The position numbers and the translations under genes were made by a program. Below the pieces are notes generated by a model. It was not told the origin of the DNA and ran no database searches. It was given only the letters and a program-made list of their open reading frames with translations. A DNA stretch of 64,000 nt from an uncultured Candidatus Saccharibacteria bacterium (GTDB lineage: Bacteria > Patescibacteriota > Minisyncoccia > JAHISW01 > Tagabacteraceae), in NCBI GenBank assembly GCA_964601305.1, contig CAZRMW010000002.1:3439-67438 (forward strand), written 5' to 3'. Below are positions 19,226-57,534 of the stretch, in pieces. Position 1 is the stretch's first letter. Each line of letters opens with the position of its first letter.

Positions 19226-20322
19226 TATTGTGTCAGTTTTTTTTCAGCTAACTTTAAAAAATTGTTTATTAATTTTGACATTTCTTCTCTAATTTTTTGG
19301 TTTTCCTCTAGAGATAAGATTGTTCGTAGTGGGTCATCCTTAATTTTTTTAATATTTTCATATACTTTTTGTGTTGCTATAAAAAGCTCAACTTCTCTTT
19401 TGTGAATTTCTAAAAAATCAGATGGCACTAAAACTTTTTTCATATTTTTTGCAGAAATTTTGTAGTGTTCTATAAAATCGTCTATTTTTTTAAAATTTTC
19501 TGTTTGTATTGCTTCTTCTAAAATATCTTCTTCTGTTTCTTTGTGTGGTATTTCTGGAATAGCATCACCAACAGCTAATAGATATTTATTTATAGATGCT
19601 GGAGAATTATCTGAAGTAATTTTAAATTCAGAAGCTGGAATTTTTGTATAAAAACCAGATACAAAAGCAAGGAGTCCTTGATTGGTGTCTGAATCTAAAA
19701 GAGCAAAAACATTTTCTGTTTCAATTTGGTCTATTTGGGAAGGGTCTTTTATGTGCGAGCTAATAGTTTGCGCAAAGCTCTGTGTAAGATTTGAGTTTTC
19801 TGAGGCTGTTTTTGTATAAACTGGCGCCTTCTCAGATTTTTTACCGGTGTCTGGATTTGAGAGTGGGTCTAGCGGATCGTACCCAGATTGTGTTTCTTTT
19901 CCATCAGTGTGTCCGTCTTCGTCTGTGTCTGGATTATTTACATCTGTTTTCCAGAGAGTTTCCTCCCAATCTCTTAGACCATCTTCGTCGGTATCTAGAT
20001 TAACTTTTTCAACCATTTTAGGTGTGAGTAGGGCAGAAGTTTTTTCGTAAATTGTTTTTGGCTCTTTGTTTTTTACAAATAAAAACCAGCTTCCTAAGCC
20101 AAAAATGCCCAGCCCAAGCAGGATTACCAAAATAATTATTATTTTGTTTTTCACCCTTTTATTGTACCACTTTTTTATGGCTTTATTGTTGAGTTTTTTG
20201 GGGATAATTATTGTGTATTGACAAAATAAGCAAAAAATGCTTTTATGTGTAGAGAAAACGAGATAAATCTCGCCAGAGGCGAGTAAATTTTTAAAAAATA
20301 AATACAAATTTTTGAAAGCCAC
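19225..20322 (-). CDS. membrane-anchored protein with thrombospondin type-3-like Ca-binding repeats (first gene of the T4SS-like operon)
   Basis: TM segment IIIILVILLGLGIFGLGSWFLF followed by DTDEDGLRDWEE...NPDTDEDGHTDGKE (DxDxDG repeats). The annotated GTG start at 20322 and the first ~55 codons are doubtful; the real start is probably near 20160. Confidence 0.5.
   Translation of the reverse strand: MAFKNLYLFFKNLLASGEIYLVFSTHKSIFCLFCQYTIIIPKKLNNKAIKKWYNKRVKNKIIIILVILLGLGIFGLGSWFLFVKNKEPKTIYEKTSALLTPKMVEKVNLDTDEDGLRDWEETLWKTDVNNPDTDEDGHTDGKETQSGYDPLDPLSNPDTGKKSEKAPVYTKTASENSNLTQSFAQTISSHIKDPSQIDQIETENVFALLDSDTNQGLLAFVSGFYTKIPASEFKITSDNSPASINKYLLAVGDAIPEIPHKETEEDILEEAIQTENFKKIDDFIEHYKISAKNMKKVLVPSDFLEIHKREVELFIATQKVYENIKKIKDDPLRTILSLEENQKIREEMSKLINNFLKLAEKKLTQ
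20265..20284. repeat. hairpin repeat AAATCTCGCCAGAGGCGAGT, copy 1
   Basis: Identical 20-mer at 58495-58514; stem CTCGCC/GGCGAG. Lies in the leader of the T4SS-like operon. Confidence 0.6.
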
Positions 20323-20364
20323 GCCGCAAATTGTATATGCAGGCGGGCAAGGAGGTGTGAAATG
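20316..20364 (+). promoter_or_regulatory. conserved GC-rich leader element, copy 1 (AAGCCACGCCGCA ... TATATGCAGGCGGGCAAGGAGG)
   Basis: Near-identical to 45475-45527; ends in the extended SD AAGGAGGTG 8 nt before the ATG at 20362. Confidence 0.55.
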
Positions 20365-21123
20365 ACTTTTAGGTGGCAGGTTATACTGGCTATTTTCTTT
20401 CTGTCGTTAATGGCTGTAATGATGCTTGGTGGCTGTGCTGCAACTAAAATCCAAAAAGAGGCGTATGTTGGGAGTCAAAAAGCTGCTGAAATGTCGGCTA
20501 AGGTGGCTGCCATAAACAATGCAAAATTGGCTGGGGTTAATCCCGATTGGATTGCTGATCGGTTGGACATTCCAAGAGAGGCTATTAATTCTGGTGGAGG
20601 CAACGAATTTATGCCCGTGGTTTCTTCTTCAAGAAAAGCCTTTATGGGGCCTGTAAGAGAGGAGTTTAACAATATCACCCGAGGAGCTCTCGGCTCTGTG
20701 GGCGCTGCAGCTATTGGTGGATATTTCTACGAAAGGGGCCAAAAGGTTGCCGGAGAGTACTACGAAAAAGGCCAGGCGGCACGCCGTCCGTCTAATTTGT
20801 CGGTAAATACTGGAATAGGTGTAAGTGCTGGAATTTCTCCCAGTGTTACCAGTGGACAGTCTGGAGGCACAACAGTCTCAACTCAACCAACAGCACCTGT
20901 TGTTGTAAGTGTCCCAGGTTCTGGCACTAACACAACAAGCTCCAGTAATAATTCGTCTTCGACCACAACATCATCGACGACATATTATTACAACACTCCT
21001 TCTACAACGACTGGTCCTGGTGTTGTCATTTACAACCCGCCTATAGTGGGGCCCACACCAACGAGCCCGTCAACCACAACTCCAAGCGGTGGCCCTGCGG
21101 GAGGTGCAAATCACGAAGATTAA
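20362..21123 (+). CDS. lipoprotein with Ser/Thr-rich C-terminal region
   Basis: Lipobox MMLGGCAAT, a Gly-rich middle section, and an S/T/P-rich C-terminus; GC content is noticeably higher than the flanks. Confidence 0.6.
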   Translation: MTFRWQVILAIFFLSLMAVMMLGGCAATKIQKEAYVGSQKAAEMSAKVAAINNAKLAGVNPDWIADRLDIPREAINSGGGNEFMPVVSSSRKAFMGPVREEFNNITRGALGSVGAAAIGGYFYERGQKVAGEYYEKGQAARRPSNLSVNTGIGVSAGISPSVTSGQSGGTTVSTQPTAPVVVSVPGSGTNTTSSSNNSSSTTTSSTTYYYNTPSTTTGPGVVIYNPPIVGPTPTSPSTTTPSGGPAGGANHED

Positions 21124-22413: not shown

Positions 22414-22417
22414 TAAC

Positions 22418-22528
22418 TATCGACATCCGATGTCGATAATTGAATATATGGCTTAAAATGGTAGAAACCACCTAAATGTAGAGCTACATTTAGGTGGTTT
22501 GTATCTGTTGGAAGCTAAGCTTCCAACA
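22418..22528. repeat. three consecutive perfect hairpins
   Basis: TATCGACATCCGATGTCGATA (22418-22438); a 17-bp stem AAACCACCTAAATGTAG...CTACATTTAGGTGGTTT (22465-22500); the palindrome TGTTGGAAGCTAAGCTTCCAACA (22506-22528). Confidence 0.7.
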
Positions 22529-22554
22529 GGTGAGAGGGAGTCTATTTGTGAGCT

Positions 22555-22581: not shown

Positions 22582-22670
22582 GTAGATAGAAAATAAAAGC
22601 CCCCGCCGAGCGGGGTAAATTGAAAACATAAATATAGATTTTTTGACAGCCTGCGGGCGGGGAGGTTCTG

Positions 22671-23081
22671 ATGAATTTTTATGACAGACCGATGAGTTCA
22701 TTGTCTTGGTTTATGGTCGGCTTCTGCCTCATTTTTGCACTTTTTGTACAGGGGTGTGGAGTACGTCTTCCTGTAGTAAGAATTCAGGAGGTACCAACAA
22801 TTTCGGGATTTTTTTACAACTACAAGGTTATGAATGGTCTTGGAAAACAAGTCCAGTTCACCTACAAAGGTCAGTTGTACACCTTGGATCCAGGAGCTCA
22901 TGCGAATATTCGTATCCCAATGCATGGGCGCAGACAGGAGATTGTTCTACCGATGATGGTCTATGATGGGCCAGACATGGTAGGAACGAAAGGTGTTAAA
23001 ATTTGGATTCCCAAGTTGTTTTCCAATGCATCAGCAAAGGAGGGATTTACCCATATTACGAGTTTTATAAAATTCCGGTGA
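22671..23081 (+). CDS. small putative lipoprotein
   Basis: 136 aa; hydrophobic N-terminus ending FALFVQGCG; preceded by the promoter and the GGGCGGGGAGG SD-like motif; followed by an intrinsic terminator at about 23105-23145; GC content is elevated. Confidence 0.5.
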   Translation: MNFYDRPMSSLSWFMVGFCLIFALFVQGCGVRLPVVRIQEVPTISGFFYNYKVMNGLGKQVQFTYKGQLYTLDPGAHANIRIPMHGRRQEIVLPMMVYDGPDMVGTKGVKIWIPKLFSNASAKEGFTHITSFIKFR

Positions 23082-28573: not shown

Positions 28574-28715
28574 TTCGTTTTCGGGCGATATTGTAGAGCC
28601 TCATAAACCCCGCCGAGCGGGGTAAATATGAGGCTTTTTTATTGACTTAGAAACACAGAATTGTTAGTTTGTAATAAGAAAAACCTTGAAATATAACCCA
28701 AAAAGGAGACAACCA

Positions 28716-35036: not shown

Positions 35037-35366
35037 TTATTTAGAAACCTTTTTACTTGCCCCGCTCGGCGGGGTTTTTTTATCTGCAAGAGAACGGTTT
35101 CTTTTTAGTCCAAGTTTTTTGCTTATAGCTAAATAACTCTCTTCATTCTTTTTCTTTAAATAATCCATCAGTTTTTTCCTTTTTGAAACCATTTTAAGAA
35201 GGCCTCTCCTTGAATGATTGTCTTTTGGTTGGCTTTTTAAGTGACTAGTAAGCTCTTTTATTTGCTCTGTAAGCACAGCAACTTGCACCTCTGAAGAACC
35301 AGTATCTTTTTCATTAATACCGTATTTCTTGATGATTTTTTGTTTTTCTTGTGTTTTCATCGCCAT
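35037..35366 (-). CDS. rpsO: 30S ribosomal protein S15 with a C-terminal extension
   Basis: [52 protein letters not shown] matches S15. A 20-aa tail (…[14 protein letters not shown]) is encoded through the palindrome CCCCGCCGAGCGGGG (35060-35074). Confidence 0.85.
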
Positions 35367-36029: not shown

Positions 36030-36590
36030 ATGAAAAGAGAAACAACAATTATAGTGGGGAAAATAGTCTTAGCAACTGTTGCATCAGTTGGTCTTGTGAG
36101 TATGGCAGTATTGGCTCCAAATGCAGTTCAATGCTTGGAAATGTTTTGGGGCAAGGATAAAAGAAAATATAGTCCCAAATACCATGTTAATAAAACGATA
36201 TCTAAATTAAAACAACAAGGTTTAATAAAATTTGAAAATAAAAATGGTAAAAGTTTTGTACGACTCACCCAAAAAGGACAAGAGAGGTTGCTTAAATATC
36301 AACTCCAAGAACTAAAAATAAAAAAGACAAAAAAATGGGACAAAAAGTGGAGAGTAATTATTTTCGATATAAAAGAGAACAAAAGGTATATAAGAGATGG
36401 GTTAAGAATAGAATTAATTAGATTGGGTTTTGTGAGGCTTCAAAACAGTGTTTGGGTACACCCATATAAATGCGATGATGTAATAGCGATGTTTAAGGCG
36501 CATTTCAAAATTGGCAAAGATGTTTTATATATGACGGTTGAGAATATAGAAAACGATAAGTGGTTGAAGGAGGAGTTTGGATTAGTCTAA
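36030..36590 (+). CDS. winged-helix protein with PaaX-C/Cas2-like C-terminal domain
   Basis: N-terminal TM, a wHTH-like segment, then WRVIIFDIKENKRYIRDGLRIELIRLGFVRLQNSVWV (Cas2/PaaX_C-like beta-alpha pattern). The domain assignment is tentative. Confidence 0.35.
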   Translation: MKRETTIIVGKIVLATVASVGLVSMAVLAPNAVQCLEMFWGKDKRKYSPKYHVNKTISKLKQQGLIKFENKNGKSFVRLTQKGQERLLKYQLQELKIKKTKKWDKKWRVIIFDIKENKRYIRDGLRIELIRLGFVRLQNSVWVHPYKCDDVIAMFKAHFKIGKDVLYMTVENIENDKWLKEEFGLV

Positions 36591-36621
36591 CATTTCTCCT
36601 AATTTTTTAGTACTTTTGAGT

Positions 36622-36655
36622 GTGTATAAACCCTACGGTCGTAGGTTTTATACAC
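36622..36655. other. strong hairpin GTGTATAAACCCTACG / GTAGGTTTTATACAC
   Basis: 15 of 16 bp stem with a 3-nt loop and no U-run, just after the stop of ORF 36030-36590. Confidence 0.5.
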
Positions 36656-36711
36656 TATAACAATAATAGTATAATAATTAATAATTTGGGGATAACTGGC
36701 GAAAATAAAAA

Positions 36712-36745
36712 AACGTCCCCACCCCGGAGCAAGTGGGGTAGGGAC
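36712..36745 (-). terminator. intrinsic terminator on the minus strand (CCCCAC...GTGGGG followed by T7)
   Basis: On the minus strand the sequence reads CCCCACTTGCTCCGGGGTGGGGACGTTTTTTT; it terminates the small gene pair 36795-37240. Confidence 0.55.
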
Positions 36746-36794
36746 TTGGAGAGTTTGCGCCCGACGCAACAGCGGGAGCAACGCACTTTGTATT

Positions 36795-37022
36795 CTAATC
36801 TAGTAAAATCTCTTTGTAAAGCTTTTTGTCATTAAATATCCACATTCCAAGAGTTCCTCTATTAATCATTTCAATCAGTTTTTTTCTGATCTTTCTGTTT
36901 GAAATATAAGCGCTTATGCCTATGGTTGCACTTCTTGGATTTTTGTAAACAAAAGATATTGTTGTAAGGTTTAAGCAAAAAATAGTTTCTTCTTCTTTTT
37001 TATAAATTTCTAAAGATTGCAT
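36795..37022 (-). CDS. hypothetical small protein (downstream gene of an overlapping pair)
   Basis: 75 aa; start overlaps the stop of the upstream 72-aa gene. Confidence 0.35.
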   Translation of the reverse strand: MQSLEIYKKEEETIFCLNLTTISFVYKNPRSATIGISAYISNRKIRKKLIEMINRGTLGMWIFNDKKLYKEILLD

Positions 37023-37240
37023 TAGTCACCTTTTCTTTCAATTTCTCTCAAAAGATCACTAAAAGCTGTTTCAATTATTTCTACAGCTTCATTTTCTTTT
37101 TCAATATCTCTTAGTTTTATAACAACTCCTTTTGCAAGATCGTTGAGTAAATTTTCTAAGTTTTCTTCCTTATCTTGTCTTTTCTGAATTTTCCGTTTGT
37201 TTCTACTCGAGTTACCTTTCATATTAAACTCCTTTCTCAA
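37022..37240 (-). CDS. hypothetical small charged protein (upstream gene of an overlapping pair)
   Basis: 72 aa, Lys/Glu-rich; a toxin-antitoxin-like 1-nt overlap with the downstream gene. Confidence 0.35.
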   Translation of the reverse strand: MRKEFNMKGNSSRNKRKIQKRQDKEENLENLLNDLAKGVVIKLRDIEKENEAVEIIETAFSDLLREIERKGD

Positions 37241-37300
37241 AGTCGTCTAATTTCTTTGTATCAGTTTGATTGTGGTTGGTCAATATCGTAGAATTATTAT

Positions 37301-38182
37301 ATGTCGCAAAACATCAAAAAACTAAAAAACCAATATTTGGAATATATAGAAATAGAAAGAGGGCGTGCGCTTAAAACAGTTGAGAATTATGATAGATATT
37401 TGAAAAAGTTTTTTGATTTTTCTAAAGTTAAAAATCCGCAAGATATAAAAGATGAGACAGTTCGTAAATATCGTTTGTATTTAAATAGAGAGGGACTGAA
37501 AAAGAAAACACAAAACTATTATTTAATTGCGCTTAGAAATTTTTTAAAGTATTTAGCAAAGTTAGATATAAAAAGTTTGCCTCCGGAAAGAATAGAGCTT
37601 GCGAAAGTTGGGCAGAGGCAATTGGATTTGGTAAGTGGTGACGACCTTGAGAGGCTTTTGAGTTCACCGAAAGGCGCCTGCGAGGCTGATTTAAGAGACA
37701 AAGCTATTTTAGAGCTTCTTTTTTCTACAGGGCTTCGAGTGTCAGAACTCTGTGGTCTTAATATAGATAGCATAGATTTGAAGAAAGATGAGTTTTCTGT
37801 GAGAGGGAAGGGGGATAAAGTAAGATTGGTTTTTTTGTCAGGAAATGCTAAAAGTGCTGTGAAGAATTATTTAGATAAAAGAGCAAATATAGATGAAGAA
37901 GCAATGTTTGTAAATATAAGATCGGGAGGTCGGTTAACAGCAAGATCGGTGGAAAGAATCGTACAAAAATATGCCACTTTGGCAGGGATTTCTAAAAAAA
38001 TGACGCCCCATGTAATAAGGCATTGTTTTGCTACGGATCTTTTGGAATCGGGAGCAGACTTACGCTCGGTACAGGCACTTTTGGGGCATAGCAATATTAC
38101 TACTACTCAAATTTATACACACGTTACCGATAGACAGCTGAAAGAAATTCATAAAACCTTTCATGGAAAAAAGCGCCGATAA
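37301..38182 (+). CDS. xerC: tyrosine recombinase XerC/XerD
   Basis: The R..H..R..Y catalytic set: LFSTGLRVSEL, HVIRHCFATDLL, LLGHSNITTTQIYTHV. Confidence 0.85.
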   Translation: MSQNIKKLKNQYLEYIEIERGRALKTVENYDRYLKKFFDFSKVKNPQDIKDETVRKYRLYLNREGLKKKTQNYYLIALRNFLKYLAKLDIKSLPPERIELAKVGQRQLDLVSGDDLERLLSSPKGACEADLRDKAILELLFSTGLRVSELCGLNIDSIDLKKDEFSVRGKGDKVRLVFLSGNAKSAVKNYLDKRANIDEEAMFVNIRSGGRLTARSVERIVQKYATLAGISKKMTPHVIRHCFATDLLESGADLRSVQALLGHSNITTTQIYTHVTDRQLKEIHKTFHGKKRR

Positions 38183-38805: not shown

Positions 38806-38837
38806 TCGCTAAGTGTGATTTATCCCGCTCGGCGGGG

Positions 38838-39237: not shown

Positions 39238-39750
39238 CTACTCTTTAGTTTTTGTAGATTCTTCTTTTTTAGTTTCCGCGCCCAAACTTTCAGATTGAGG
39301 TGGACCCGCCTGAATGTCCTTTGGACTTTCGGCGGGTTCTTCTTTGTCTTCTTCTGGTTTAGCTTCCACTTTTGAAGCGTCCATAATAGTTTCTTTGATT
39401 TGTTTCATTTGCTTCATTTTCTTTCTTACTTGTCTTGCAGCCCTTTCTCTTAAGTAATAAAGTTTGGCCCGCCTTACTCTTTTTGGTCTGCTTATAAGCT
39501 CTATTTTTTCAATTTTTGGTGAATATAGAGGTAAGGTTATTTCTACTCCTACACCTCCAGAAATTTTTCTTATAGTAAAAGTGGCACCTGGCTCTGTGCC
39601 GTGTTTTCGTGCAAGCAAAAGGCCTTCAAAAGCTTGAAGCCTACTTTTTTTACCTTCTTGGATTCTTTGCCACACTTTTACTGTGTCTCCTGGGCGAATA
39701 TCCAAATTTTTTCTGTCTTCAGTTTTTACAGGTGTAAATTGCATTTGCAT
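39238..39750 (-). CDS. rplS: 50S ribosomal protein L19 with an acidic/Lys-rich C-terminal extension
   Basis: [31 protein letters not shown]…[10 protein letters not shown] matches L19; about 55 extra C-terminal residues. Confidence 0.85.
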
Positions 39751-43586: not shown

Positions 43587-44045
43587 ATGAATAAAAAAAT
43601 GTACAGAGCTTTTATAGAAATTCCAAAAGGAGATGATAGAAGAAGGCATATGAAATATGATAAAAGTGGCTTGATTGACTTAGGACCGATTAAAGATGTT
43701 ATTCCTGTGAATAATGGTATTATGCCCATTCATTATGGCTATGTTTTAGATACGATCAACAAAAAAGAAGACCCTCCTGAAGAATTAGATGTTTTAATCT
43801 TTTCAAAAAAACAATTTCAGATATCTGATGTTATAAAAATTAAACCAATCGCAATAATAAAAAGAGAAGACAATGATCACAAAATAGTCGCAACGGAAGA
43901 AAATGATTTAAGGGGTTGGAAGGAGATTCATGACAACGAAAAAGAACTAATTAAAAGCTATTTTGGTTACAAATCCAAAATTGTGAGTATAGAGGGAGAA
44001 AAGGAAGCTATTGATTTGATCGAAAATTCGTTGGTTGTTTCATGA
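43587..44045 (+). CDS. ppa: inorganic pyrophosphatase (family I)
   Basis: FIEIPKGDDRRRHMKYDK…YGYVLDT…DPPEELDVLIF matches family I PPase metal-binding motifs. Confidence 0.7.
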   Translation: MNKKMYRAFIEIPKGDDRRRHMKYDKSGLIDLGPIKDVIPVNNGIMPIHYGYVLDTINKKEDPPEELDVLIFSKKQFQISDVIKIKPIAIIKREDNDHKIVATEENDLRGWKEIHDNEKELIKSYFGYKSKIVSIEGEKEAIDLIENSLVVS

Positions 44046-45490
44046 ATTCTAAGCATTTTTTAATTTTTATAATTTTCTTTGGAGTCGGTGTTTTTGCTGG
44101 CTCATTTGTTAGTACGAGCTTATCTTTTTATTTGGGCTTGTTTTTCATTCTTCTTGCTATAGTTTTTCAACTAGTGAGGTTCAACCTCACTAGTTTGGTA
44201 TGGGTGCTAGGGGTGTTTGCGGTGGGGTGCGGTCTTGTCTATTTTGGTTTTGTGGCAGAGCCGGCGGATATGTCTTTTTTGGAAAGTAAAATTGGAGAAA
44301 GAGTTGTTTTGGAGGGTGTGGTGATAGACGAGCCAGATGAAAGAGAAAAATATACAAGATATGTTTTAGAGATAGATAAAGGGGTTAATGTTTTACTTAC
44401 TGCAAGACATTATCCAAAGTTTAAATACGGAGACAAGGTTGAAGTGAAGGGTGTTTTGAAGAAACCAAGTAATTTTAGTGAGTTCGACTGGAGGGCATAT
44501 TTAGCTAAGGATGATATTTATTTTGAAGTATTTTATCCAGAGATAAAATTTTTGTCTGCGCGTCAGGGGTCGGAAATTAAGTATCAACTTTTGGCTTTCA
44601 AGAAAAAATTATTAAACAACGTTTCGGCAGTAATTCCAGAACCTCACTCTGCACTTTTGGGAGGGCTAACTTTTGGCGCCAAGCAAAGCATGCCAAAAAG
44701 TTTGCTCGAAGATTTTAGAAGTACTGGGGTAATACACATAGTAGTGTTGTCTGGCTATAACGTAACAATAATTGCGGATTTTATAATGCGCATTTTTTCT
44801 TTTTTGCCATTTTATTTTGGTATTGGGTTTGGTGCGTTGGGAATACTTGCTTTTGCCATTATGGCTGGAGCTTCAGCGACCGTGGTGCGTGCTTCTATTA
44901 TGGCGATACTTGTGCTCTTGGCGCGTGCGACTGGAAGGATTTATGAAATTACAATTGCTCTTTTTGCAGCTGGATTTTTAATGGTGCTTCATAATCCAAA
45001 AATAATTCGGTTCGATTCTTCTTTTCAGCTTTCTTTTTTAGCAACTATGGCATTAATTTATGTGGCGCCTCTTGTAGAAACAAAACTAAAATTTTTGCCT
45101 AAAAAACTTCAGATTAGAGAAATTGCTACAGCTACTGTTTCTACACAGATTTTTGTGTTGCCACTTATTTTATATAAAATGGGTTTGTTTTCTGTTGTGA
45201 GCTTGCCAGTGAACTTGCTGATTTTATTTTTTGTACCGGCGACGATGTTTTTTGGGTTTATGACAGCAGCGACAGGTTTTCTTTCATATTTTATAAGCTT
45301 ACCTTTTTCTTGGATAACTTATGGGTTGTTAAATTATGAATTAAAAATTGTAGAAATTTTTGCAAGTCTACCTTTTGCATCTTTTGAAATAAGCAATTTC
45401 CCACTTTGGCTAATGTTGACAATCTATGTTTTTTACGCTATTTTGATTATCAGATTGAGAAACAAAAACCCAAAAAGCCACGCCGCATAA
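44042..45490 (+). CDS. comEC: ComEC/Rec2 competence channel protein (DUF4131 plus competence domain; lacks the MBL domain)
   Basis: N-terminal OB-like DUF4131 region, then a polytopic competence domain (HSALLGGLTFGAKQSMPKSLLEDFRSTGVIHIVVLSGYNV). Confidence 0.8.
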   Translation: MNSKHFLIFIIFFGVGVFAGSFVSTSLSFYLGLFFILLAIVFQLVRFNLTSLVWVLGVFAVGCGLVYFGFVAEPADMSFLESKIGERVVLEGVVIDEPDEREKYTRYVLEIDKGVNVLLTARHYPKFKYGDKVEVKGVLKKPSNFSEFDWRAYLAKDDIYFEVFYPEIKFLSARQGSEIKYQLLAFKKKLLNNVSAVIPEPHSALLGGLTFGAKQSMPKSLLEDFRSTGVIHIVVLSGYNVTIIADFIMRIFSFLPFYFGIGFGALGILAFAIMAGASATVVRASIMAILVLLARATGRIYEITIALFAAGFLMVLHNPKIIRFDSSFQLSFLATMALIYVAPLVETKLKFLPKKLQIREIATATVSTQIFVLPLILYKMGLFSVVSLPVNLLILFFVPATMFFGFMTAATGFLSYFISLPFSWITYGLLNYELKIVEIFASLPFASFEISNFPLWLMLTIYVFYAILIIRLRNKNPKSHAA

Positions 45491-45527
45491 TCTAAATATA
45501 TGCAGGCGGGCAGGGAGATCTAAAATG
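45475..45527 (+). promoter_or_regulatory. conserved GC-rich leader element, copy 2
   Basis: AAGCCACGCCGCATAAT…TATATGCAGGCGGGCAGGGAG…AAATG; overlaps the comEC stop codon and ends at the ATG of the small ORF. Confidence 0.55.
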
Positions 45528-45704
45528 CCCGAAGAAGAAAGATATACTTCAAAAGTTTGCAGAGAAAGAAGAGAGATTTTAGTATTTTTAAATGAAATAG
45601 GTCAGGATCTGAAGGATGTGAAAGTAGTTCCCTTTAAAGAAAAAATTGGTGTACATACCCTTGATAAATACGAAGTTATCTACGAAGACAAAGAAGAGAT
45701 ATAA
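45525..45704 (+). CDS. hypothetical 59-aa protein
   Basis: Sits directly behind the conserved leader with SD GGGAG; below the ORF-track cutoff. Confidence 0.4.
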   Translation: MPEEERYTSKVCRERREILVFLNEIGQDLKDVKVVPFKEKIGVHTLDKYEVIYEDKEEI

Positions 45705-45716
45705 AGGGGGTGTAAC

Positions 45717-45899
45717 ATGGATCAATTTGTACCAATGTTGCTTGATTCTCTTTGGGGAAAACTATTCTTTTCCTTCTTTGCTCTTCTTGGAGTTTTGTTT
45801 TTTTCGATGCTTGTATTTTCTGATTTTTGGATCAAAAAACTTCAGTTATCGATTGATTTTCTAGATAGTTGTATAAAAAAGCTTGAAGAATATAAATAA
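45717..45899 (+). CDS. hypothetical small membrane protein
   Basis: 60 aa with one TM; SD AAAGGGGG; a terminator hairpin follows at 45953-45985 (GCCCGATC/GATCGGGC). Confidence 0.4.
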   Translation: MDQFVPMLLDSLWGKLFFSFFALLGVLFFSMLVFSDFWIKKLQLSIDFLDSCIKKLEEYK

Positions 45900-46011
45900 A
45901 TATTGTCTTACTAAAAATAATGGTAGGGAAAAAGTAAAAAGTCTCTTGGTTATATAGCACAAGCCCGATCGGATGGTCGGGCTTTTATTTTTGTGCTAGT
46001 TTGTTTTTAAG

Positions 46012-46869
46012 ATGATAGATTTTTTGAAGAAAAATTTTGCTTACATTTTTGTTGGTGCGCTATTTTTAGGAGCTGTTTTTGTTTGGTTCATAGTTTTTAC
46101 AGAAGACAGAAGTGGGATAGAAGTAAGTTTTTTAGATGTTGGTCAGGGCGATGCAGTTTTTGTACAAGCTGAAAATGGCAACCAAGCTTTGATAGACGGC
46201 GGGCCAAACAAAGCTATCTTACAACAACTTGCGAGAGTGATACCATTTTATGATAGATCGATAGATATACTCATACTATCTCATGCACACAGCGACCATA
46301 TTGAAGGGCTTATCGAGGTGCTTAAAAGATATAAAGTTGGCATGGTGGTGGAGCCATGCTTGGATTACAAATCTGCAGAATATAGAGAATTTTTAAATAT
46401 TATAGAAAGTAAAAAAATTTTAAGGGTTTGTGGAAGTGGAGGGCAAAAAATAAATCTTAGTGAGGGTGTTTATTTTGATGTATTGCTTCCAGTAGGAAAT
46501 GTAGAAGGAAGAAAAGTTCATGATGCTATGTTTGTAGCAAAACTAAATTATAGAAAAACTTCTTTTTTGTTTACAGGGGATATGGAGAAAAACCAAGAAA
46601 AATATTTAGTGAGTGTTTCAGATAAAGATTTAAAAAGCAATGTGCTAAAGGTGGGGCATCACGGATCAGATACATCTAGCTCTGAAATATTTCTAGGCTT
46701 CGCTAGTCCAGAGTATGCAATAATTTCTTCTGAAGAAGGAAATAAATTTGGCCATCCACATAAAGAGACTCTAGAAAAATTAGAAAATTTTGAAATAAAT
46801 ACTTTAAGAACAGATAAGCTGGGAACAATAAAAATCTGGAGTGACGGAGAACAAGTTTTTATAAAATAG
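46012..46869 (+). CDS. ComEC C-terminal metallo-beta-lactamase domain protein (separate gene)
   Basis: N-terminal TM, then LDVGQGDAVFV…ILSHAHSDHIEGL (MBL HxHxDH) as in the ComEC C-terminal domain. Confidence 0.75.
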   Translation: MIDFLKKNFAYIFVGALFLGAVFVWFIVFTEDRSGIEVSFLDVGQGDAVFVQAENGNQALIDGGPNKAILQQLARVIPFYDRSIDILILSHAHSDHIEGLIEVLKRYKVGMVVEPCLDYKSAEYREFLNIIESKKILRVCGSGGQKINLSEGVYFDVLLPVGNVEGRKVHDAMFVAKLNYRKTSFLFTGDMEKNQEKYLVSVSDKDLKSNVLKVGHHGSDTSSSEIFLGFASPEYAIISSEEGNKFGHPHKETLEKLENFEINTLRTDKLGTIKIWSDGEQVFIK

Positions 46870-48385: not shown

Positions 48386-48608
48386 TATTTTTGTTAGTGG
48401 TATAATCAAAGTAGTTATTTGAAGATTTGTTTTTAGGTTAAATTGTTTTTCTAGGGAGTCTTATATTGGGCAGTGTCGACGGATTTGTTCTGGATATTGC
48501 TTCTGCGGGCACCCACCTGAAAAGTAGCTAAAAACACTCTTTTAAATAACTTGCCCCGCCAGGCGGGGTGAACCTCGCTCCTTGTTTTCAAGGGGCGTTG
48601 GTTTTTTT

Positions 48609-51928: not shown

Positions 51929-52300
51929 ATGTCTTTTATGGATAAAATTAAAGGTGTTTTTAGTGGAGCTAAAAATGAAGATACTTCTATGGGTGCAGGT
52001 GATGCAGGCATGCCACCAGTTGAACCTGCTTCACCAATGGGCGAGCCTACAACATCGGATGTTCCGGAAGTTCCAGTTTCAGAGCCAATGGCTACCCCAA
52101 CTCCAGCAGAGCCTGCTTCGCCAATGGGCGAGCCAGTAGCTGCTCCAGAGCCGGAGCCTATGGCTAGCCCAACTCCAGCTGAGCCTGAAGCTCCAGCTGT
52201 AACTCCCGAGACACCCCAGCCACAACCTTCGGATGTAGGCGGGCAGGCAGTTGAGGGTGGAGAAGAAAAGCCAGTAGAAGGTGGTGGAATGGCTTTGTAA
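51929..52300 (+). CDS. Pro/Ala/Glu-rich repetitive protein
   Basis: PAEPASPMGEP repeated; GC-rich; followed by terminator 52321-52362. Confidence 0.4.
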   Translation: MSFMDKIKGVFSGAKNEDTSMGAGDAGMPPVEPASPMGEPTTSDVPEVPVSEPMATPTPAEPASPMGEPVAAPEPEPMASPTPAEPEAPAVTPETPQPQPSDVGGQAVEGGEEKPVEGGGMAL

Positions 52301-52368: not shown

Positions 52369-52860
52369 CTATGGCCAAAGAATGTGGCCGGTAATTTTGT
52401 CTTCAATTTTTTCGATAGAAGAGTATCCAAAAGTAAAAACTGTTTCAGAGGATAAATCGGTAATTTCAATTTGGCGTTTTTTAAATATGATAGAAGCTTT
52501 TTTTATAAATATCGTTTTGGGATTGGGGTCGTTTGCAATAACAATGCTTTCCACTTCCTTTATTCTCGGATATATAATAGCACCTTTTGTTAAGTGAATA
52601 ACTGCCTGCCCAACAAACTCTTTAAGATCGGACTTTATATTAACTTGTCCACCATATCTGCTAGCGTAAATATAAAACACTCCATCTTTTTTGTTTACTA
52701 CCGATTTGCAGAGCTGTACGGCTTGTTCAAAAGTGCTAACATCATCCCCACCAATTTGGTAATATTCTTGCTTAAATAATAAAATGGCTCTAAGTCGCCC
52801 GCTTTTTTCTGGTCTTAAATTTTTCTTAGAAATTTTTTTGAGCCTTACAAAGTCGCCCAT
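52369..52860 (-). CDS. hypothetical protein
   Basis: 163 aa, no recognisable motifs. Confidence 0.4.
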   Translation of the reverse strand: MGDFVRLKKISKKNLRPEKSGRLRAILLFKQEYYQIGGDDVSTFEQAVQLCKSVVNKKDGVFYIYASRYGGQVNIKSDLKEFVGQAVIHLTKGAIIYPRIKEVESIVIANDPNPKTIFIKKASIIFKKRQIEITDLSSETVFTFGYSSIEKIEDKITGHILWP

Positions 52861-53607: not shown

Positions 53608-53954
53608 GGGAGTGATCGGCTTTGATAAGAAGCTTCTTTTAAAACAGTGCATATCGAGTATTCTAAAATCTCGTTAAACTTTTAGAGCTTCAAATAAATG
53701 CAAATTTATTTAAAACTCCAGCTTTAGCTTACGCTTAAAGCTCGTTCCCTTACTCATTCTCAATAAGTAAGGAAGAACGTCATCATTGAGATAGATAATT
53801 TTTATTGGGCTTTGAAAAATTATTGAAACAAAACAAAGCCAAAGCTAAGAACTTTTTGCTCGGTTTTTATTTCTTAGTCTAAACAAACCAAGCTAAATAT
53901 GTAGATACTTTTTAAAAATCTTTTTACACGGCGGTTCGATTCCGCCCACTTCCA
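53608..53954 (+). ncRNA. ssrA: tmRNA (transfer-messenger RNA)
   Basis: 5' GGGAGTG pairs with 3' CACTTCC including G3:U70; T arm GGCGG-TTCGATT-CCGCC. PK1 region CAGTGCATATCGAG resembles E. coli GGUGCAUGCCGAG. Tag ORF gca aat tta ttt aaa act cca gct tta gct tac gct taa encodes ANLFKTPALAYA (53700-53738); the GCTTTAGC core is conserved. CCA is not encoded. Confidence 0.85.
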
Positions 53955-54377
53955 CAAAATATTAATTCCCGAAGCGTTAGCTTTGGGGATTTTGATTTTG
54001 TAGGTTGGTGGCGGAATTGAACAGGCGGAGGCGGGCACCGTCGCCGACTAGCGAAGCTAGTGGCGCGCGGTCGCCGAGCCCGGGGAGGAAGTTCTTAGTG
54101 AAGACAAGTGCAAAGCACGAAGTCTGAGCTTAGAAACTTGACCCTCGATTCCGCCCACTTCCACAAAATATTAATTCCCGAAGCGTTAGCTTTGGGGATT
54201 TTGATTTTGTAGGTTGGTGGCGGAATTGAACAGGCGGAGGCGGGCACCGTCGCCGACTAGCGAAGCTAGTGGCGCGCGGTCGCCGAGCCCGGGGAGGAAG
54301 TTCTTAGTGAAGACAAGTGCAAAGCACGAAGTCTGAGCTTAGAAACTTGACCCTCGATTCCGCCCACTTCCACAACT
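53937..54377 (+). repeat. 209-bp tandem repeat (2.1 copies) beginning inside the last 18 nt of ssrA
   Basis: CGATTCCGCCCACTTCCACAA recurs at 53937, 54146 and 54355 with identical 188-bp GC-rich spacers. Confidence 0.9.
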
Positions 54378-57168: not shown

Positions 57169-57534
57169 ATGGTTAGAATAAAAAGAGGTACAATTTCATT
57201 AAAGAGGAGAAGAAACGTTTTAAAACAAACGAAGGGTTATAAGTGGGGAAGGAAGTCTAAAGAAAGGGCAGCTAAAGAAGCAATTTTTCATGCAGCTACT
57301 CATGCCTTTCAAGACAAAAGAAAAAAGAAAAGAGTTTTTAGAAAATTGTGGCAGATAAAAATAAATGCAGCTGTTCGTCCGCTAGAGGTTTCTTACAGTA
57401 GGTTTATAGACATGCTTAAAAAAGCTGAAGTTGGTTTGGATAGAAAAATATTGTCGCAATTAGCAGAGCACAAACCAGAAGTTTTTAAAAAAGTTGTTGA
57501 AGAGGTAACCCCGCCGAGCGGGGCAAGAAAATAA
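57169..57534 (+). CDS. rplT: 50S ribosomal protein L20 (C-terminal tail encoded by the palindrome)
   Basis: MVRIKRGTISLKRRRNVLKQTKGY…RKLWQIKINAAVR matches L20; the last codons (…TPPSGARK) read through CCCCGCCGAGCGGGG at 57509-57523. Confidence 0.85.
   Translation: MVRIKRGTISLKRRRNVLKQTKGYKWGRKSKERAAKEAIFHAATHAFQDKRKKKRVFRKLWQIKINAAVRPLEVSYSRFIDMLKKAEVGLDRKILSQLAEHKPEVFKKVVEEVTPPSGARK

Follow-up and report, generated by a model that had tools for sequence, protein, structure and literature searches.

Repeats are generally held to be scarce in the tiny gene-dense genomes of Patescibacteria, also known as the candidate phyla radiation (CPR). [quoted passage not shown] Intragenic REPs located at protein termini and in replication or repair genes have been published (PMC3733652), as have Rickettsia palindromic elements (RPEs) inserted in frame (PMC10969869). 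Here, we describe a short GC-rich hairpin element found in a 64,000-nt stretch of contig CAZRMW010000002.1 from an uncultured Candidatus Saccharibacteria bacterium. This whole stretch, with a mean GC content of 33%, is hereafter called the window, and all positions are those of the window. The element probably belongs to a previously undescribed family of low-copy GC-rich imperfect palindromes in Patescibacteria, similar to REPs and RPEs.

The window carries two intact copies and one decayed copy of the element (Table 1). The original prediction had pointed out two near-identical elements sharing two blocks. Both are real, are located where it placed them and are far above chance expectation: the 17-mer TGCAGGCGGGCARGGAG is found four times with at most three mismatches (two exact) for 0.03 expected from shuffled sequences, and GCCACGCCGCA has two exact occurrences. 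The two blocks are conserved, not as separate blocks but as the two arms of a single imperfect hairpin. Copy 1 is organized as AAAGCCACGCCGCA-AATTGTATA-TGCAGGCGGGC-AAGGAGGTGTGAA-ATG (ATG at 20362) and copy 2 as AAAGCCACGCCGCA-TAATCTAAATATA-TGCAGGCGGGC-AGGGAGATCTAAA-ATG (ATG at 45525). Their loops are unlike in sequence and length (9 versus 13 nt), and the flanks located 5' of the hairpin are unrelated. Copy 3 lies in frame inside an open reading frame (ORF 51929..52300), in the protein context ..VTPE[TPQPQPSDVGGQ]AVEGG.., and its stem has been kept through compensatory changes.

What the copies share folds imperfectly as GCC(A)CGCCGCA-loop-TGC(A)GGCGGGC, a hairpin with two conserved bulged A's, and the consensus unit of about 31-36 nt reads (G)GCC-A-CGCC-GCA-A-RY-NNN-RY-A-TGC-A-GGCG-GGC-(RGG). 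As single-stranded DNA (ssDNA) or as RNA, this unit is predicted to fold into a 12-bp stem that contains an A·A mismatch besides the two bulged A's, which are invariant. Predicted RNA folding of copies 1 and 2 in their context gives -17 to -20 kcal/mol, and DNA fold prediction gives -8.5 kcal/mol for copy 1 (z -2.4) and -10 kcal/mol for copy 2 (z -3.7). With 31-35 nt and a stem of 10-12 bp, the hairpin is a foldable imperfect palindrome within the 20-40 nt by which REPs are recognized. A covariance model (R1) was built from nine copies and covariation was computed on 14 copies. Over these 14 copies, whose alignment is fitted to the model so that pairing and covariation counts are biased towards structure, 95.8% of cells are paired versus 28-37% in controls with slid partners, double (compensatory) changes are found at four pairs (for example GCA/TGC to AAA/TTT, ACA/TGT or CAA/TTG), and the covariation score is reached by 0 of 500 shuffles. 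The bulged A's are retained in nearly all copies. Furthermore, all six frames of the GC-rich consensus are free of stop codons, and the GTAG/CGTC tag is absent from the flanks of all 10 intact copies on both strands.

Such a hairpin is extremely unlikely to be a plain intrinsic terminator, a GC-rich palindrome that arose by chance or a DNA-uptake sequence. Copy 2 does lie at the end of comEC-N, and on the minus strand its hairpin is followed by TTTTTGGGTTTT. However, on the plus strand AAGGAGG or AGGGAG follows instead of a T-run, there is no convergent minus-strand gene, and the real terminators of the window differ in sequence and have a T-tract, the terminator scan reporting other hairpins only. 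As for chance, it cannot produce 22 identical arm nucleotides in AT-rich genomes of three lineages. Single arms with at most two mismatches are found five times in the window for 1.46 expected; they are not over-represented and a DNA-uptake sequence was rejected on this ground.

Relatives were searched with both 11-mers, separated by a flexible gap, in a collection of 596 Gb with a single genome for each species and in the JGI metagenomes. About eight other sites with the same 11-nt arms, in both orientations, were found in contigs from Collierbacteria and Woesebacteria. They form a distinct set, carried by contigs of 40-50% GC, in which all loops are 9 nt long and homologous (A-RY-NNN-RY-A). 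The members from Collierbacteria are MFAI01000036 (L022, the same as L065), L073 (the same as L086, assigned by a cluster at at least 90% identity), L083 (the pilus operon of an L022-like organism) and L095; the one from Woesebacteria is CP066693 (L025). Two others (L043 and L058, about 42-48% GC) come from metagenome-assembled genomes (MAGs) labelled Pseudomonadales, whose taxon is not established. The covariance model found a second copy in L043. All other matches come from genomes of 50-74% GC and have loops that are unlike the family consensus and mostly of a different length; by our estimate, they are about as many as chance predicts. In a genome of about 35-40% GC, 22 specified GC-rich bases would be expected by chance at a negligible rate only. 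At least three lineages carry the element, at loci that are unrelated and in both orientations.

Many of these copies are located inside genes. As for RPEs, insertions in frame were found in unrelated genes, namely those of prepilins, ComM, RecF, a CsaA-like protein and ORF 51929. A prepilin leader carries an in-frame 11-aa insertion (MKG[HAASCACRRAG]QLMIEILV), and a neighbouring protein of the pilus operon carries one at its N-terminus (SGQ[ATPQATHAGGQ]AALILIM). The same peptide is inserted in ComM (KRL[ATPQATHAGGQ]AKIY), and the ComM of the window has a 9-residue gap exactly there. Other in-frame copies are located in the C-terminal tail of RecF (...FSG[ATPQASHAGGQ]ADIIRL*) and in the CsaA-like tRNA-binding protein (MIMA[TPQASHAGGQ..]). 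Moreover, the covariance model detected three further prepilin leaders of L022 with a decayed copy in frame, for instance MKNKATPKAMHLGGRG followed by FTLLE. In one Collierbacteria operon, decayed copies are present in three or four leaders. About nine of the 12 independent copies are in sense orientation. Antisense copies are found in L043 and L073, the latter being intergenic and 6 nt upstream of a glmM-like start; one antisense copy lies within a large membrane protein and an antisense 11-aa insertion reads PARLHTKFAAW. In L095 and L025, the copies are deep in ORFs, far from their starts. We rejected the possibility that the element is a conserved coding sequence of prepilin leaders because other frames and orientations of this DNA are in use as well and because a search with MKNKATPQASHAGGQGFTLIELLV... 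gave only generic pilins lacking the leader. A six-frame peptide search for in-frame copies gave scores of about 10-12 bits (E about 1e5).

Comparison of orthologs indicates that the unit can be an exact insertion of 33 nt (11 codons) that is tolerated inside ORFs. The L083 and L022 orthologs differ by exactly 33 nt, flanked by GGTCAG/GC and GGGCAG/GC. In the closest relative of the window (L103/L104), copies 2 and 3 are absent, the latter from the L104 ortholog of ORF 51929..52300, and no copy was found in 47 kb (three overlapping contigs). Two metagenome contigs from the same organism as the window start at the element. One of them, the strain contig L002, matches the window without difference from its 3' arm on, and its upstream flank differs; its arms are identical to those of the window at 22 of 22 positions and its loop differs at three of nine. 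This points either to constraint on the arms within a segment that has diverged or to a recombination boundary at the hairpin; both may apply.

If it were a cassette boundary, the alternative that the original prediction had offered, the hairpin would be a site-specific recombination site of the attC/dif/pdif type, where an Xer-like or other recombinase inserts ORFan cassettes. This is quite unlikely. The 11-9-11 layout with extrahelical bases does resemble recombinase core sites and attC hairpins, L002 changes from the loop upstream, both intact copies of the window are located at the 5' edge of ORFan genes, the interval between comEC and the metallo-beta-lactamase (MBL) gene holds other genes in relatives, and an Xer-type tyrosine recombinase is encoded in the window (37301..38182). 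However, no second site was found at the far end of either putative cassette, the copies are single, and solitary 33-nt insertions in ORFs carry no cargo. A loop of 9 or 13 nt and covariation that extends the stem are also unfit for the spacer of a duplex crossover. Despite the bulged bases, the GTT/AAC core (R''/R', RYYYAAC...GTTRRRY) is found in no copy, and the recombinase scores 144.8 bits, under the 265-bit cutoff of integron integrases. Copies 1 and 2 are separated by 25 kb of housekeeping genes (ksgA, uvrD, comM, pnp, rpsO, tRNAs, rplS and recJ) and differ in loop length; on these grounds, we rejected that they are the attL and attR of a 25-kb island.

Both intact copies are followed by a strong Shine-Dalgarno sequence (SD) and an ATG, as the original prediction had stated. 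The hairpin ends exactly 13 nt before the ATG in each case, and the SD begins 1-2 nt after the stem. The interpretation that had been drawn from it, a portable module combining promoter and translation initiation, is largely wrong, and we consider it very improbable. In its favor, the spacing is the same after both copies and the G-rich 3' tail of the hairpin (GGGC-RGG) could supply the 5' half of the SD. However, within the shared sequence the promoter scan detected no promoter-like hexamers (-35/-10), and the two copies have unrelated upstream flanks. The tail itself is generic: the ribosome-binding site (RBS) of the unrelated gene 52369..52860(-), AAGGAGGCTTGAAATG, is identical to the copy 1 tail at 14 of 16 positions, and the tails of copies 1 and 2 resemble each other no more than they resemble unrelated RBSs of the window. 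Therefore, the specific repeat is the hairpin only, and the copies from other genomes are not followed by any SD and ATG. The fixed 13-nt spacing could reflect a G-rich target preference or co-option. About one quarter of the window genes have a strong SD. About three quarters lack one and many have a TATAAT-like box 5-9 nt before their ATG, which suggests that leaderless or short-leader mRNAs are widespread; SD-led genes are a minority.

Since it has no GTAG/CGTC tag, no RAYT seen in the window and a low copy number and is shared between classes, we propose to file the element as a new family of the general kind of REPs and RPEs. The unit would spread, or would once have spread, as a hairpin through a putative trans-acting enzyme. 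It may land preferentially next to G-rich sequences (CAGG/AGG, SD-like) and be retained at tolerant places such as gene ends, leader peptides, linkers and 5' untranslated regions (UTRs). The intact copies of the window would have happened to adjoin the SD of lineage-specific ORFan genes or would have been co-opted beside it. Any effect on the downstream gene, such as a stem-loop in the 5' UTR that stabilizes the mRNA or modulates the access of ribosomes, would then be a secondary co-option.

Several data weigh against this reading. The copy number is low: this genome has three copies over about 78 kb (another approximately 14 kb of it carry no copy according to the covariance model) and a single exact-arm copy in the complete 917-kb Woesebacteria chromosome (CP066693). 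Collection scans demanded exact arms, hence an ascertainment bias. There is one clean pair of filled and empty sites only, and no clear target-site duplication, the repeat CAGGC that flanks the L083 insertion being inconsistent across copies. The window carries no candidate mobilizing gene, its sole recombinase being Xer-like; no HUH/Y1 transposase or RAYT was found among about 60 of its ORFs scanned with Pfam. Moreover, the arms are perfectly conserved across lineages that are 15-20% apart in GC and in AT-ameliorated copies, a pattern closer to that of purifying selection on a function than to that of selfish DNA. The start-codon spacing, identical in both intact copies, together with the intergenic antisense copy of L073, which ends 6 nt before a start codon, hints at a translation-linked role or at a target preference. 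Because of the conserved arms and of their fixed place next to an SD, a functional reading stays alive.

The hairpin could therefore be a cis-regulatory RNA leader: a bulged hairpin of the 5' UTR that binds a conserved protein (translational operator) or stabilizes the mRNA and would control SD-led genes of the DNA-uptake, pilus or type IV secretion system (T4SS) machinery. This is possible but unlikely. It accounts for arms and bulged A's that are invariant across lineages while loops drift, for the adjacent SD and constant distance to the ATG of both intact window copies, in a window where most genes lack an SD and where these would be unusual long-leader genes, for the predominance of the sense orientation and for contexts enriched in comEC, comM, recF, prepilins and a T4SS neighbour. 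However, the element is missing at orthologous positions in relatives, some copies are antisense (L043, L073) or inside ORFs far from starts (L095, L025), the downstream genes belong to no common family (two are ORFans), and the pilin-leader peptide is not widespread. It has no Rfam match either: a Rfam 15 scan of the window at gathering thresholds reported a tmRNA and four tRNAs only, with no family at the element, and a permissive scan found nothing credible there. A recombination site is less likely than a protein-binding leader hairpin or an mRNA stabilizer. More speculatively, the hairpin could be the recognition site of a Patescibacteria-wide protein that reads bulged ssDNA or RNA hairpins (recombinase/transposase or translational regulator) and that installs or controls lineage-specific surface and ORFan genes beside the DNA-uptake machinery (comEC, comM, recF, type IV prepilins, T4SS). 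Such a protein is doubtful; if it exists, it would explain both the invariant 22-nt arms in genomes of 33%-50% GC and the fixed 13-nt spacing from the start codon.

Table 1. Copies of the hairpin element, second hairpin family and adjacent features in the window
Feature	Position	Strand	Description
Copy 1 hairpin	20318-20348	+	Arms GCCACGCCGCA / TGCAGGCGGGC, 9-nt loop AATTGTATA; covariance model 55.5 bits
Copy 1 tail	20349..20364	+	SD AAGGAGG, 6-nt spacer, ATG of the lipoprotein ORFan; generic RBS
Lipoprotein ORFan	20362..21123	+	253 aa; lipobox LGGC; S/T/P/G-rich; 48% GC; directly 3' of copy 1
Third relative of the original prediction	22599..22665	+	CCCCGCCGAGCGGGG member (22601-22615) and G-rich SD region (22650-22665)
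comEC-N	44042..45490	+	DUF4131 and Competence domains; 3' end runs into copy 2
Copy 2 hairpin	45477-45511	+	Same arms as copy 1, 13-nt loop; covariance model 39.7 bits
Copy 2 tail	45512..45527	+	SD AGGGAG, spacer, ATG of the 59-aa ORFan
Two small ORFans	45525..45899	+	59 aa and 60 aa (transmembrane helix); downstream of copy 2
Canonical terminator	45961-45993		After the two small ORFans, before the MBL gene
Separate MBL gene	46012..46869		Follows the terminator 45961-45993
Copy 3 (decayed)	52213-52247	+	In frame inside ORF 51929..52300; covariance model 25.3 bits, E ~1e-3
Second family CCCCGCCGAGCGGGG	22601-22615(+), 28608-28622(+), 35060-35074(-), 57509-57523(+), 38823-38837(-), 48554-48568		Flanks AA..[T/C]AA

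The window is chromosomal and close to the origin. It carries dnaA, dnaN, rnpA, yidC, ksgA, uvrD, comM, pnp and rpsO, as well as tRNAs, rplS, recJ, ppa, ndk, tmRNA/smpB, nusG and other genes. Copy 1 is located in a divergent intergenic region beside the T4SS-like operon that the original prediction had noticed; this operon is real and encodes, on the minus strand to the left of the copy, a TraG/VirB4-type ATPase, TrbL/VirB6, PrgI and a T4SS pilin. Copy 2 contributes, through its 5' arm and loop, the end of comEC-N, namely its five final codons (KSHAA) and its stop codon (45488-45490). The other claim about neighbours, that this copy sits at the fission point of comEC, does not hold. The closest comEC homologs that we examined (about 420-510 aa, 52-72% identity in the best local alignment) encode only DUF4131 and Competence and thus lack the MBL too. 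The closest relative (L103/L104, 69% ComEC identity) successively carries comEC-N, a normal terminator, a PaaX-like gene and an MBL gene (L103 10001-13554). The split between comEC and MBL is therefore ancestral in the clade, which rules out the element as its cause. In this lineage, comEC groups with the Parcubacteria-type comEC. Throughout this clade, comEC-N and MBL are separate genes with variable content between them: two ORFans in the window (44042-46869) and, for the relative, one PaaX/Cas2-like gene.

Searches of 5.8 or 1.8 billion proteins gave no homolog for either the lipoprotein (253 aa) or the 59-aa protein. Downstream genes had been considered GC-rich, which is true for the copy 1 gene (48% versus the 33% mean) but not for the copy 2 genes (32% and 29%). 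The three window genes with the highest GC content, 51929-52300 (52%), 20362-21123 (48%) and 22671-23081 (42%), are exactly those that touch hairpin elements; none of them matches any protein family. The first two are of low complexity, being rich in P, A and E and in S, T, P and G, respectively, and the first also has internal direct repeats of 72 and 87 nt. The Xer-type protein of the window passes the cutoff of the archaeal XerA model, and its gene adjoins the one of a PaaX-like protein with a Cas2-like middle domain (36030-38182). A phage origin was rejected, since a scan of viral contigs gave one unrelated GC-rich match only.

A second and more abundant family of mini-hairpins, CCCCGCCGAGCGGGG, is present in the same window, which makes such elements a general feature of this genome. 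Four exact copies were found for 0.01 expected, plus one with a single mismatch and one variant. One of them is in the loop of a canonical terminator (28598-28640) and two are in the last codons of rpsO and rplT. This family explains the third partial relative that had been proposed before ORF 22671. This sequence is missed by the covariance model and consists of a CCCCGCCGAGCGGGG copy with a G-rich SD region located 35 nt downstream of it.

The window carries other palindromes and repeats. Three adjacent near-perfect palindromes (22415-22441, 22462-22503 and 22505-22529) are located directly after the DUF11 gene. Three ribosomal proteins have C-terminal extensions over GC-rich hairpins, such as CCCGCC...GGCGGG at 39305-39336: L19 (170 aa, 39238-39750(-)), S15 (109 aa, 35037-35366(-)) and L20 (57169-57534(+)). 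A perfect tandem duplication of 209 bp (2.1 copies, 53936-54375), has a unit whose first 22 nt are the final ones of the tmRNA gene (53608-53957) and may be what is left of an element that had integrated at the tmRNA; the sister contigs L107/L108 have one 209-bp unit fewer. An RHH/HigB-like toxin-antitoxin pair is located between argS and ileS, just past the right end of the window (L107 12846-13328). In addition, ComEC homologs (P0001, P0003, P0019 and P0023; L106 3451-3475) have short lineage-specific in-frame inserts (for example PSTSSGQA, NPTAGSAQG, ALPAGR and SLPAGKAG, the DNA of PSTSSGQA being CCTTCGACAAGCTCAGGACAAGCT), which suggests further families of small GC-rich insertions in genes of Patescibacteria.

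A conserved ORF-compatible mini-hairpin common to several classes would offer a new marker, either for horizontal exchange within this radiation or for an enzyme that its members share and that recognizes the hairpin. The element gives rise to small in-frame insertions in prepilin leaders, ComM and RecF and is a practical cause of contig breaks and of odd C-terminal extensions in MAG annotation, and the apparent "leader" of the two ORFan genes would be no dedicated expression signal.

Among known systems, attC and the Xer sites dif/pdif are likewise inverted repeats that are imperfect, have extrahelical bases and lie at the edges of variable gene sets. However, the element has no R''/R' boxes, its loop length varies and its sequence, not only its structure, is conserved; in addition, unlike attC, there is one site per putative cassette, without arrays and without an integron integrase in the window. 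MITEs (for example Correia/NEMIS, ERIC) are also short non-autonomous repeats with inverted-repeat ends. They are 70-300 bp long, with terminal inverted repeats of 15-30 bp and target-site duplications, whereas the element is 33 nt long with no evident duplication. The GC clusters and hairpin elements of yeast and sponge mitochondria are short GC-rich hairpins that invade AT-rich compact genomes, including coding sequences (PMC8811140, PMC2800124); they are organellar, unrelated in sequence and much higher in copy number. RPEs are closer in behaviour, being palindromic and inserted in frame in unrelated genes of a small AT-rich genome, where they add a peptide without inactivating the protein (PMC10969869). 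They are about 100-150 bp long and restricted to Rickettsia, whereas the element has 33 nt of unrelated sequence. Like REPs, the element is a dispersed GC-rich imperfect palindrome of 20-40 nt that occurs in either orientation, frequently at gene 3' ends and sometimes in ORFs, at protein termini or in replication and repair genes, and it probably acts as an ssDNA or RNA hairpin (PMC3733652). It differs from the RAYT-associated REPs of the GTAG/CGTC superfamilies by the lack of a tag, its very low copy number, its frequent intragenic location and a window without any RAYT seen. Furthermore, REP families are mostly specific to a species or genus, whereas the sequence of the element is common to different classes of Patescibacteria.

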